A stretch of 64,000 nt of DNA from Escherichia coli (GCF_050320075.1 NZ_CP190018.1); one strand, 5' to 3'. Positions 58,479 through 64,000 are shown, counted from the stretch's first letter. Program-made: the numbers.

Positions 58479-61400
58479 AGGGCAAGATTACGAAAGCCTG
58501 CTCCCCGCAAGGACTGACGCGAGAAATGACATGAATCGCTCCCCTGCGGCGACTCTTGTCATAAGAGTGCCGGAGCGTTTTTCCATCAATTACAATGACG
58601 TCTTTATCATCTGAAGAATGGCAGTCACGCATCCAGTTAATAAAGCACTCGTGAAATTTTTCAGGACTGATACAGGATACAACTCTGGCAATGGTATCGT
58701 GAACAGGAATACCATTTTCAAAATCACCATATTGCTTCAAAAAATCGAGATGAGTTTCCCCAAAATCCTCTATATCTTCCCAACCTTCTGCACCAGAAAT
58801 AACGGCACAAATAGTCAAAAGTAGAATATCTGACAATTTATGCTCCACTTTCCAGTCTTGTCTGTAATCGGGGATAATAGAAATATGTTCCATCAATTTT
58901 TTAAGTTTCATTTTGTTCTCCTTAATTATGTAAGGAGTATTTGATCATGTATAAGCAATGGAAAACAGCTTTAGGTAATAAGGAATATCTCAATTATTGA
59001 ATATTTAGTGCGAATTATTTAGTACAAAAAAGCAGCGTTGCGTGATCTTTCCCTGCCCTTTATTCATAAACACATGGATATGGTGATCAACGGTGGTCTG
59101 ATGGAGGCGCAGAGCCTGAGTAATCATGACTGAATTTCAGCCTTCAGAAGCCAGAAAAATGGCTTTAATACAATCGCAGCCCCGCTTTTCACAACATTAT
59201 GCTTATAATATGAAAAATATCTTGCCTTGCATCTTTGTGCCTACGGCATTGGATGATCTTTCCCTAACCTTATAGTTTCTTTTAGCCTTTCAAGCCTTAG
59301 CAATTCAACCTCGGCTTTAATATAGCCATGTGAGGCAGCCATTTTCAGCCAATTAATTGCATTATCTAAATTATAATATTTTAAATAGGAATCATCCTCC
59401 TCTGAGGATAGAATCATAGCATAATTATATTGCGCTATGATATTTCCTTGAGATGCAGACCTTGCCAGATATTTAATTTGCTTGGGTATATTAAAGCAAA
59501 CATATGTATAATATTGATGTAATCGATATGACGCATCACCATCCCCGCCCTCAGATTTAATATCAAGTTCATATCTTTGATTTTCACTTAAATTAAACGA
59601 TTCAGATGTTGAGCTTATTTCAATGTTATGGAGCTTAATAGGGGGGGGGATTTCACCTCCATATGAACAACAAGAGAAAAAGAAAACATTTGCAATCAGA
59701 ATAAATAAAAAGCACTTCATGTTGCCACCTTTGTTATTTTATATCACTTGGTCTCATAACTTTGCCAGGAGTGGAAGAAATGGGTTGACCTGAAGGTCCA
59801 AACGTTATCCAGCGGCCCATATTATTACCAGTTATGACATTATTACTTGTGTCAATTGCCGAGATATTATCCGTAAGTCCTGTTTGGATCGTATTAAAAA
59901 GAGGAGTATTATTATCCCACGCCATCCATACTTGCCATTGTGTATCAGCTCCAGTGACATTTGCATGAAGTGCTCTGGCTAACTTGCTGGCAAAAGATTT
60001 ATCTCCCTCTCTGGCTGTACCACATGAGAATAATCAAACAGACATTCCCTTTTTATAGCGTGGATTAGCTCTGATTCTCTTGGCTAATCCCTCAGCAGTT
60101 TCATAGTTTCCATTTTCATCTGTAATAAAACCAGGATATCCATGTCCTCCAATAGTAAAAACGCCAGGAATATTTATTTTATCTGTTGCAGCATGCAGTG
60201 ATACATTTCTGCGTATCCCCTCATCATAGAAATTCATATCAGCTAATCCAAAAGGGTCTATATACTGAACCGGATTCAACGGATACTCATAAAAATTCCA
60301 TCCCCCCTTCAGCCCAATCGAATCCTGAGTGATATACCTCCCCTGCAGCGGGTCATAATAGCGGTGGCGGTTGTAATACAGGCCGGACTCCTCATCATAC
60401 TGCTGACCCGGCAGGCGGATGAGTTGCTGCAGCTGTTGCGGGTTCTCTTCATTCAGCAGGTTGCCCCATTCATCGTATTCTGCGCACCATTCTGTTGCCC
60501 CTTCCGTGCTGATAAGCACCAGCGGCAGGCCGCGATGGTCGCAGTGGTACAGGTGGATTTTTCGCGCCGGCGTGTACACCGGGTCCATCTGGTTTTGCAT
60601 CTGCTTCACCGTCAGGCCGCACGATGCCAGCCAGCGGCGGCTTTCCTCACTCACCCGGTCAGCCAGGATTTCACTTTCCAGCCGGTCGAGCATCTGCACC
60701 GTGCCGGCGGGAATCCCCCACTGTGCATAGGCAACTCACGCTATGAACGCTTCAGCTTATCAATAGCGGAAGTTATAATTTCATTGTCATCAAACTTGTA
60801 CAACATAGTATCTAAAACAGGAAGTAGCGTTTTATCACCTAATTCACCCGCAGCTTCAATGATATCATCATAAACAGTATTTTTTTTTAACTCATCGCAT
60901 AAAACAGATAAAACCCTTTTATCTTTTCTGTAGGAAAGTCCGATTATTGCTTCAATACGGACTTCCTCATTTTTATCCTGAAGCATCTCCACAAAACAAT
61001 CCCTAATATCACTATTATCATATTTATTGATATTTATTGCAAATGCGGCCCAGTTTCTGACATCTCCATTTGGATCTTTTAACAGATTAATCAATAGTGG
61101 AATTGTTGCTTTATCATTGATAACAGAAATAGCAAATGCTGTAGCACGTCTGACATTAGTCGATTTATCAAAAGCAGTAATTTGAGATTGTTCTACTATT
61201 TTAGGTGAATAAATTGGGTTTTTCTTGCATCGCTGAGCCGTTGACTCGATTGCCGTAGCTCGAACGCAAGCGCTCTTATCATTCAATGCCATATTGTTCA
61301 AAATATTAAACACATTATCTTTGCATTTTTTGCAAATTTTTATTTGCCCGAGTATAAATGCTCCGATATCTCTACGGATATAATTTTTATCAGAGCAGAA

Positions 61401-64000
61401 CTCAATTGCCAATCTAACAGCGTCTTGACCACCTCTTAACTGTAATACTCTGGCAGATGAAATCCTTTTCAAGGAATTGTGATCATCAAGTAAGCGAAAT
61501 AATTCATCATCATTTAGTTTCTTACATTGATTATATAAACCATACTCTTTACTTGCCTTTCTTTTCTGGTATGTATTTGACATTGCAGGAACCTCCATAA
61601 AGACTATCTTTTTCTATCGTTTGACTGTCTGGAGTCCTCCACCTACTCTGCCATCAGCACACACGATGTTTGTTTATCCTTACATACTTATTTTCCGTGG
61701 CCAAAATTTAGAATTCTCCCGTCATTTTTGCCTATTTCTATAATAAAAACCCTACCAGCAATTTGGTCTGATTCAATGGTGCCTTCAACAATCCAACTTG
61801 TTGGTAATTCCATGATTTTGTATGGTTTTTCTTCTTCTGCGGCATCATGCCCATAACGATTTTTAACATACATCTCAGCTAATTCCAATGCTATAGCTTT
61901 ATTTTTTACCAAATTTCTAACGGTGTATTTCCCCTCACATTCATACTTGCGCATTATAATAATATTATTACACTGCGCCCATGTGTTGTATGTAAAAACA
62001 AAGATACAATCACATAGGTTCTGAATAATATTTTCTTATACGTTGTCATGTATTTTGCAAACATTAGACAATCCTTTTCCATTTATTATATCTTTCCCAT
62101 GATTATCTATTGCTTTAAAATTTTCACCTATTGACCTTGAATTACTACAATCACTTCCAGTGAAATCTGAGTTATTCAGAATAGCATTCATCAGAGCCGC
62201 ATTGTGAAAGACAGCATTTCTAGTTGATGTATGTTGAATCATTACATTTCTTAAATGAGTTTTTTCAAATTTCGCCCCATCAAGACAATAACCATTGAGG
62301 GTGGCACGATGTAGATTCATCCCGCTAAAATCATATCCAGCAAGAGTGGTACTATCTATCTCAAGAAATTTATTGGTTATTAAAAATGCGATTCTTATCA
62401 TCTGTTCCTCCAATCATCTAACTCCTGAAAAATTTGAAAACCAGAACCTCGCTTAGGCCTGTGTCCATACTACGTGGGTAGGATTATTCTGCGTACTACG
62501 CTGTTGTCCCTTACGTGCTGATAAGGGCTGGCAGGTTTCCGGCTTGCTTCGTTGAGTTCACTACGCTAAAGCTCCGTGTCCACATAACCCAGCTCGGAGG
62601 CATGACCTTCTCTGGTTCGTTCCATCTAAAATGTCTATAACTGACATGGTTATTCAATTATTTTTTCTTTGAGTTTATTCTCAATCCAGCGGTCTTTATA
62701 CCTGATGAGAATTTGACATTCACCAATATTATCAATGTCACCAACATTTGTGTTTCGAATTTGACCAACAGCAACTATAGTTGATTCAAAACATTCAACA
62801 TTGACTTTATCTGTTATTATTGAAACTATATAATCATCTGGAATGGAGCCATTAGGTATTATATTAAAGAAAGTAACATCGGTAAATACTAAATAACCAT
62901 TTTCTAAGTCTTCATTATTATAAAAATTCCATTCTGTTGTACCATAGGCTATCCTTGAGATTAAATTCACCTGAATTCTAATTTGTTTGCTCCATAAATC
63001 AAATTCAATTTTTTTATTGGTCGATCACCAAGATATATTCTATCAAACATATTACCCTCTATTCTAAAAATACTCAGGCATTCCACACATTATATCAGCC
63101 TCATCTTGACTGCTTCCCGTTTCCCGATACGGCGGTGCGGGGAGTCATAAAGGTAAGAAATTTCCAGCAGTACGGCGTCCTATTGTTCACGGCGGTAATG
63201 CACCAGCCAGTATTGGCTATCGTAGTGATAACCGTGTAATCTGCCGCCGCATCGCGTATCTAATGTTCATTCTTTTCCATAAACCGTCCGTACACATTGT
63301 GATAGTAAAAATACAATACATCTTCGCTGATGCGGTTATTCTGCTGCATGTGGGAAGCGCCGAATACTGCTCCCGGTATGGCCAGTAATTACTATTTAGT
63401 ACGACGTTAGGGGGAGTCACTTAATCTCACAGATACTTCAAGTAACAGATGAAAATCGCTCCTGAAATGAAAAAGAAATTTTTTTGAATGTGTTCCTGTC
63501 AAATCAAGTGGTTTTTTCGTCGATATGTAGAGTCATATTGTACACAAAATAGTTATGAAACACACCTTGGTAAAATATTTGAATCGTCTGAACAGTGGAT
63601 TATTTTGTGTATTACATCCAACGCTTGCCCATCTTTTTTCGCTATTAGTATTGTAAAATTTCCTCCTAACGTCTTCGGTTGTTTTCCCTCGATTTTCCAA
63701 CAATTATTGTCATCTGTAATACTATATGGTTTCTGAAATTCTGCTTTTTCTTTCCCGTATATATATTTAATATAAACATATGATAATTCCAAAGCCATTT
63801 CACGACTATTTACTAAAATTTCCACTGAATTTTCTTTTCCAAATACTGAGTGTGATATTGTAAACAATATCATAATAAGTAATATTAGTGAGTTTCTCAT
63901 GCTCTACACCTATCGAATCTCAAAAGTTGTGGGTAAAACATTACATTCAGAATATATGATATTCTTACCATCGGAATCCATTTTTCCAAATCGACCTTCT

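Follow-up and report, generated by a model that had tools for sequence, protein, structure and literature searches.

Immunity proteins bind and block their cognate toxin domains. Arrays of orphan toxin/immunity modules have been described for cdiA-CT/cdiI and rhs-CT/rhsI (CT, C-terminal toxin; Poole et al. 2011, PMC3150448), and Tox-JAB-2 (DUF4329) has been listed with Imm-NTF2 family 2, and Ntox34 with Imm-HEAT (Zhang et al. 2012, PMC3482391). Here, we analyzed a stretch of 64,000 nucleotides (nt) from Escherichia coli (GCF_050320075.1, NZ_CP190018.1), called the window below, in which five open reading frames (ORFs) lie on the minus strand (60741-61598, 61688-61954, 62036-62413, 62650-62970 and 63553-63900). 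We consider it quite probable that these ORFs form a “fossil” downstream portion of the rhsB locus, resulting from successive displacements of Rhs C-terminal toxins. The array resembles the published ones in having tandem displaced modules downstream of the main toxin gene, debris of insertion sequences (ISs) and the same toxin-immunity pairings. However, classical orphan modules keep a toxin-coding fragment and a conserved junction motif, whereas in the window short 3′ scraps of the toxins are present and most immunity genes are damaged.

In E. coli K-12, the same site between nikR and yhhJ is occupied by rhsB, yhhH, a HEAT pseudogene and yhhI. At both loci, yhhH is preceded by the same RhsB-CT tail and has a yibA-type HEAT sequence after it; positions 61600-62098 are 89% identical at the DNA level to K-12 yhhH and the rhsB 3′ end. 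By contrast, K-12 has an undamaged yhhH immediately after the main rhsB gene and only a remnant of the HEAT gene, whereas in the window yhhH is frameshifted and yibA is intact. The window also has additional modules between rhs and yhhH, namely those of a ybfC-like gene, a 115-amino-acid (aa) NTF2-type protein and DUF6258, along with a pentapeptide-repeat fragment.

Two other rhs loci share parts of the array. The K-12 rhsA locus (rhsA-yibA-yibJ-yibG) has the same yibA, the yibJ-like orphan Rhs and the Sel1/TPR block, and the final 33 nt of rhsA are shared as well. The RhsA resident in K-12 carries an Ntox34 toxin, for which yibA is the cognate immunity gene; the window no longer has this toxin, and its yibA stands as an orphan in the rhsB locus. 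The rhsC locus of E. coli B and O157:H7 (ybfC, NTF2 fold immunity, DUF6258, RHS fragment, ISAs1) contains the same sub-block at 94-95% identity, with a shared tract of seven A nucleotides that is discussed below. However, truncation of the NTF2 gene has gone further there, to 66-75 aa, and DUF6258 of O157 contains an additional stop codon.

The feature is real but ordinary, being known and already annotated: the array is present at an identity of at least 99% in 234 of 5,426 complete E. coli genomes and is annotated there. The value of checking it lies in a correct annotation, and the locus illustrates how immunity genes accumulate, are trimmed and are exchanged between rhsA, rhsB and rhsC.

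Organization of the array

The array lies between yhhJ and the window end, with yhiI-rbbA-yhhJ at 53400-58323, and its site is the rhsB locus of E. coli. Over its whole length, the window is 99.99% identical to E. coli strain YZLc1-3 (NZ_CP123240.1). In that record, the minus strand past position 64000 contains a YbfC-like gene (189 aa, hydrophobic N-terminus, window-equivalent 64069-64638), a gene for a 1399-aa “RHS element core protein” and then nikR. A full-length rhs gene is therefore located on the same strand directly upstream of the array, as had been presumed in a preliminary description made from the window sequence alone.

Read 5′ to 3′ on the minus strand, the modules begin with the rhs core and its current toxin tip, followed by the ybfC-like immunity gene. 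Next are a DUF4329 toxin scrap, the 115-aa Imm-NTF2-2 gene, an Rhs-CT scrap, the DUF6258 gene, an Rhs core fragment and an IS3 end. These are followed by a truncated pentapeptide gene fused to an RhsB-type DUF4329 toxin tail, the frameshifted yhhH, an Ntox34 scrap and yibA. The order ends with a yibJ-like orphan Rhs module, a Sel1 gene and IS fragments (Table 1).

Table 1. Features of the array and its immediate surroundings, in minus-strand order
Feature	Coordinates	Strand	Basis
DUF4329/Tox-JAB-2-type Rhs toxin 3′ scrap	63901..64000	-	Alignment to Rhs-DUF4329 gene 3′ end in L012
Imm-NTF2-2 gene, 115 aa, Sec-type N-terminal segment	63553..63900	-	Pfam PF15631; alignment to 100-aa allele
Inter-module segment, ~360 nt	63122..63480	-	Between NTF2 and DUF6258 modules
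Rhs C-terminal toxin 3′ scrap, last ~58 nt with stop codon	63064..63121	-	Alignment to L007 orphan Rhs-CT (...GSNQDEADIMCGMPEYF, then stop)
DUF6258 gene, 5′ frameshift	62650..63050	-	Pfam PF19772, 1.9e-15; allele comparison
Rhs fragment starting next orphan module, 165 nt	62485..62649	-	Matches annotated RHS-domain pseudogene fragments
IS3-family remnant, 62 nt	62423..62484	.	~95% identity to sequence annotated as IS3-family transposase in many genomes and plasmids
Pentapeptide-repeat gene, first ~92 codons	62128..62401	-	Pfam Pentapeptide_4, 1e-7; PGAP partial
K-12-type RhsB C-terminal toxin (DUF4329) tail, last ~30 codons	62036..62127	-	Alignment to K-12 rhsB 3′ end
yhhH-like Imm-NTF2-2 gene, frameshifted	61688..62064	-	K-12 yhhH alignment; PGAP
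3′ scrap of K-12-type rhsA C-terminal toxin (Ntox34), ~33 nt (...HSRQSNDRKR, then stop)	61604..61636	-	K-12 rhsA/yibA junction alignment
yibA, HEAT-repeat immunity protein, 280 aa	60741..61583	-	NCBIfam, PDB and K-12 matches
Orphan Rhs module (yibJ-like), rhs core end and C-terminal toxin	59734..60711	-	NCBIfam RHS_core, Rhs_assc_core
Sel1-repeat gene	59241..59720	-	PGAP annotation, K-12 layout, hydropathy

The five ORFs are present where first described, and these genes are indeed AT-rich (28-34% GC, versus 49% for the window). The spacers had also been called AT-rich, but the three larger ones have 42-48% GC, are thus richer in GC than the genes, and contain toxin scraps, the Rhs core fragment and the IS3 end. 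Profile searches with Pfam and NCBIfam assigned the ORFs to HEAT_2/YibA, Imm-NTF2-2 (twice), Pentapeptide_4 and DUF6258, which are immunity-type families. The DUF6258 match is that of the 106-aa protein previously regarded as unclassified.

Four of the five families are found elsewhere in the immunity position, i.e., directly after an Rhs C-terminal toxin, and the pentapeptide family is the exception. In K-12, rhsA is followed by yibA, and rhsB by yhhH; K-12 RhsA-CT matches Ntox34 (1.9e-43) and K-12 RhsB-CT matches DUF4329 in Pfam scans. Locus L012 has a full Rhs-DUF4329 gene, whose DUF4329 domain was also detected by Pfam, and 10 nt on a 100-aa homologue of the 115-aa gene, with 82 of 96 aa identical over the compared part. 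Rhs-DUF4329 is likewise followed by Imm-NTF2-2 in Salmonella, and in strain ETEC4067 an orphan Rhs-CT is followed by an intact DUF6258 gene 14 nt on. With the parent rhs gene present and these linkages elsewhere, the proposal that the window contains an Rhs-associated immunity island is supported.

Remnants of displaced toxin ends and of the rhs core are present between the genes, in the form of four toxin 3′ scraps and the Rhs core fragment at 62485-62649. The DUF4329 scrap is ~125-135 nt long, running past the window end to ~64035, and its TAG stop codon is ~10 nt before the 115-aa NTF2 gene. For the observed layout, homologies, lesions and parent rhs gene, we infer a history of displacement followed by trimming. 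A new rhs C-terminal toxin/immunity cassette would have recombined into the main rhs gene, and the older tip and its immunity gene would have been pushed downstream. Later deletions and IS activity would then have trimmed the displaced toxins to their last 33-135 nt, leaving the immunity genes.

The modules might instead be retained as a reservoir for toxin switching, from which recombination reloads the main rhs gene. Reloading of a stored toxin tip has reportedly been shown for Salmonella orphan Rhs. The yibJ-like orphan at 59734-60711 retains rhs core homology, and reloading of orphan modules onto the main gene is possible in related systems (PMC3150448). However, each toxin in 60741-63900 is reduced to 33-135 nt, so that nothing is left to reload, and the sole orphan with core homology has an in-frame stop codon in its toxin part. 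We therefore regard a reservoir as very unlikely.

Lesions in the array genes

The five genes had been described as intact. By contrast, we found that four of them are damaged: PGAP flags yhhH and the pentapeptide gene, and alignments add lesions in the DUF6258 gene and the 115-aa gene. Only yibA is free of lesions.

The yibA gene was first called as a 285-aa ORF, but its true start is at 61583 rather than 61598. The protein matches NCBIfam model NF007244 (465.7 bits versus a cutoff of 275, covering profile positions 1-282 of 285), Pfam HEAT_2 and PDB structure 1OYZ (E = 2e-182), and 279 of its 280 aa are identical to K-12 YibA. The ratio of nonsynonymous to synonymous differences (pN/pS) relative to the copy in the O7:H15 strain discussed below is ~0.17. 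According to PMC3150448, which cites Vlazny & Hill 1995, growth inhibition by the RhsA C-terminus was neutralised by yibA. With this report and the crystal structure, the statement that none of the products is characterised does not hold for YibA. Another paper retrieved for “YibA” (PMC12945103) was discarded, because it appears to treat the NADAR-type YbiA and not the HEAT-repeat YibA.

In yhhH, comparison with K-12 reveals that one TTTG unit (4 nt) is gone near 62001, in the hydrophobic N-terminal region, and there is a further 3-nt deletion. The frame from the original ATG at 62064 stops after 36 codons (MFAKYMTTYKKILFRTYVIVSLF...). The 88-aa ORF (61688-61954) is the 3′ remainder of the gene from an internal Met, before whose ATG a Shine-Dalgarno sequence is not visible, and 79 of its 88 aa are identical to K-12 YhhH. 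The K-12 protein has 127 aa, with a leader, MSAEFMVICKKILFRNCVIVSLFVFTYNTWA, that is followed by QC. PGAP marks yhhH as “frameshifted” both in the record matching the window and in the O7:H15 strain.

The pentapeptide ORF, as read, encodes 125 aa and is a chimera, in which the truncated pentapeptide gene is fused in frame to the RhsB tail (...NFKAIDNHGK..., from 62127 downward). K-12 RhsB ends in ...NFKAIDNHGKEITNRKGLPNVCRVHGNM. The full-length pentapeptide relatives, from Salmonella salamae, Enterobacter and Intestinirhabdus, have 161-168 aa, and the native C-terminal ~70 residues are missing in the window; the alignment to a 165-aa Salmonella protein (P0004) stops at ...SRSIG. To judge from these alignments, the fusion is a recombination scar. 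PGAP represents the gene as two partial pseudogene pieces.

The surroundings of the pentapeptide relatives bear on whether the genes could be unrelated to toxin immunity, e.g., housekeeping genes, anti-phage defence genes or, for the pentapeptide protein, a factor of the quinolone-resistance type. One relative, in Intestinirhabdus, stands alone among housekeeping genes, and there is weak NCBIfam similarity to Qnr/MfpA. However, these scores are 16-20 bits versus cutoffs of 240-480 (16-30 versus 125-480 with HetL included), the relatives in Salmonella and Enterobacter are also within Rhs arrays (inside them, and not directly after a toxin domain), and four of the families are directly toxin-linked elsewhere. 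We find it hard to credit that the genes have nothing to do with immunity. A topoisomerase-protecting protein of the Qnr/MfpA type was rejected since its matches are below the curated cutoffs, and the one secure call is to the generic Pentapeptide_4 at 1e-7. Anti-phage defence was also rejected, as PADLOC gave nothing but a generic HEAT-repeat match for YibA. In an Enterobacter metagenome contig (L016, 1-3207), pentapeptide relatives occur in an Rhs orphan array beside lpdA-aceF-aceE; an Rhs core fragment is 18 nt after them, and a cognate toxin is not evident on this contig.

The DUF6258 gene begins at an ATG (63050) that is preceded by the Shine-Dalgarno sequence GAGGG. Its frame is ended after 27 codons by an A7 tract at 63009-63015 (27-29 codons across the window, E. 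coli B and O157). The 106-aa ORF, from a GTG at 62970, is the downstream remainder, and a Shine-Dalgarno sequence is not visible before this GTG. Alleles with A8 encode an intact DUF6258 protein of 130 or 133 aa (ETEC4067, L007, and metagenomic contig L015). The window, E. coli B and O157 share A7, and the O7:H15 tract is A6. There are thus three lengths among the six distinct loci examined (window, L003, L004, L006, L007 and L015), and the full protein occurs only with A8. However, homopolymer lengths are unreliable in long-read assemblies, and the variation may reflect a slippage-prone sequence or assembly error in some records.

Since the lesions in both yhhH and DUF6258 are in slippage-prone simple repeats, the loss of TTTG and the A6/A7/A8 tract could be reversible switches, making the orphan immunity genes phase-variable. 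If so, a few cells in the population would re-express a stored immunity gene. We consider such switching improbable.

The lesion in the 115-aa gene was found by comparison with the toxin-linked 100-aa allele of L012. Owing to a 2-nt deletion near 63611, the protein ends in a 19-residue tail instead of the family's terminal ...THTK. In the family search described below, the domain of Imm-NTF2-2 members normally ends at the last residue of the protein.

Because of the lesions in the other four genes, yibA alone is likely to be functional. It likely still protects against RhsA-type Ntox34 toxins from neighbours, and the other four genes are probably inactive or impaired relics.

Instead, in keeping with the preliminary description of five intact genes, the array could be a fully functional island, whose five ORFs would be expressed and would protect against five toxins of neighbours. 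The ORFs do lie on one strand downstream of rhs and belong to immunity-type families, and the array is conserved in 234 genomes. Moreover, the divergence of alleles indicates past purifying selection, and orphan immunity genes of contact-dependent inhibition (CDI) systems can be expressed and protective (PMC3150448). However, four of the five genes have frame-breaking or truncating lesions relative to their toxin-linked alleles, with PGAP pseudogene flags on two of them. The native starts of the 88-aa and 106-aa ORFs are gone, a Shine-Dalgarno sequence is not visible before the new ones, and yhhH has lost its export signal. Promoter-like sites are no more common than in shuffled sequence (19 versus 19.1 expected), although this count and that of terminator-like sites (2 versus 3.2 expected) are uninformative. 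We therefore think it unlikely that all five genes are functional.

Several observations weigh against the reading of the array as a decaying remnant of the rhsB locus. Divergent alleles have dN/dS ratios (nonsynonymous to synonymous substitution rates) of 0.23-0.39, a sign of past constraint only. Substitutions between the arrays of the window and O7:H15 are too few to show relaxation: yhhH has 2 synonymous and 2 nonsynonymous changes, and the pentapeptide gene has 0 and 2, respectively. (The 115-aa NTF2 gene, of equal length in the two arrays, has 1 of each.) PGAP calls the 106-aa DUF6258 and 115-aa NTF2 ORFs intact, and proteins that are truncated or have an altered tail could still be partly active. 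The conservation in 234 genomes fits recent common descent, but selective retention would fit as well. Among the neighbourhoods of the pentapeptide relatives, no cognate toxin for this gene was found. Finally, the origin of the segment at 63122-63480 was not found: none of the genomes has an annotated gene at this place, and the 67-aa ORF within it has no NCBIfam match.

Exchange between rhs loci

In the O7:H15 strain ST70 (NZ_CP102244.1; L006, 5600-13700), the whole array is located at the rhsA locus (yibF...yibH) with 97% identity. It has the same yhhH frameshift and pentapeptide chimera as the window. Therefore, the array moved between rhs loci as one block after these lesions had arisen. 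Given this array at rhsA and the ybfC-NTF2-DUF6258 sub-block at rhsC, there has been exchange between rhs loci.

The two Imm-NTF2-2 genes

Both NTF2 ORFs match PF15631 at E <= 0.001 (best 4.2e-23), and the two proteins are paralogous, with 38% identity over 76 aa (E = 1e-14). They had been described as a secreted and a cytoplasmic paralogue that could mark immunity to toxins acting in different compartments. The paralogy was thus correctly recognized, but the leaderless copy is the product of a 4-nt deletion in a leader-bearing yhhH allele, and the N-terminus of its intact K-12 counterpart is hydrophobic in the same way as that of the other copy. With its missing leader explained by the yhhH frameshift, the leaderless copy provides no evidence of a pair designed for two compartments. 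Toxins with DUF4329 precede the Imm-NTF2-2 homologues in K-12, L012 and Salmonella, and in the window just their 3′ scraps are left.

All intact relatives that we examined have hydrophobic N-termini, namely K-12 YhhH, the 100-aa L012 allele, a 106-aa Salmonella protein and the 115-aa protein of the window. For the last of these, the N-terminal hydropathy maximum over 11 residues is 3.38, and a sequence search retrieved no solved structure. Signal peptides were called from hydropathy and inspection of the -3/-1 positions, and not with a dedicated predictor.

To cover the family, we used an Imm-NTF2-2 profile built from mature domains only (E <= 0.001). This search found 1,867 cluster representatives, far beyond the “E. 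coli only” range given in 2012. Among the best 142 of the 1,867, a strongly hydrophobic N-terminal segment occurs in 86 of 117 proteins longer than 95 aa (~74%), and 24 of the 25 proteins of at most 95 aa do not have one. The short group includes truncated yhhH and YbbC-like (rhsD-linked paralogue) ORFs, plus leaderless forms that may be genuine. These proportions suggest that the longer Imm-NTF2-2 members are mostly exported. RNase activity is commonly guessed for DUF4329/Tox-JAB-2 toxins, and the apparent export of most longer Imm-NTF2-2 proteins is a poor fit with such a role.

Spacers and neighbouring elements

The inter-module segment at 63122-63480 is kept in every copy of the NTF2/DUF6258 junction, with 96-99% identity across the whole spacer. 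The Rhs fragment at 62485-62649 is 83-84% identical to RHS-domain fragments located after DUF6258 in other strains. Its part at 62485-62528 matches the rhs core, and the fragment is cut off at the IS3 remnant.

Rfam searches at E <= 0.1 detected no structured RNA in the spacers. Outside the array, positions 58264-58367 match the Listeria small RNA rli42 with 25.7 bits, compared with a gathering score of 80 (E = 0.014), and this match is almost certainly due to chance.

The yibJ-like module, which retains rhs core homology, is outside the five genes. An in-frame stop codon divides its toxin part into ORFs of 221 aa and 63 aa, and PGAP annotates it as a pseudogene with an internal stop. The Sel1 gene corresponds in position to yibG of the K-12 rhsA locus and has a hydrophobic, lipoprotein-like N-terminus; it is presumed to be the immunity gene of the yibJ-like orphan module. 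Fragments of IS630 and ISAs1 follow the Sel1 gene.

Elsewhere in the window, a sil/pco silver-copper resistance island occurs at ~23976-52000, between yhiN and a yhiJ-type DUF4049 remnant. Its borders contain a TnsA fragment, IS1 copies and an IS66-family element (ISCro1).

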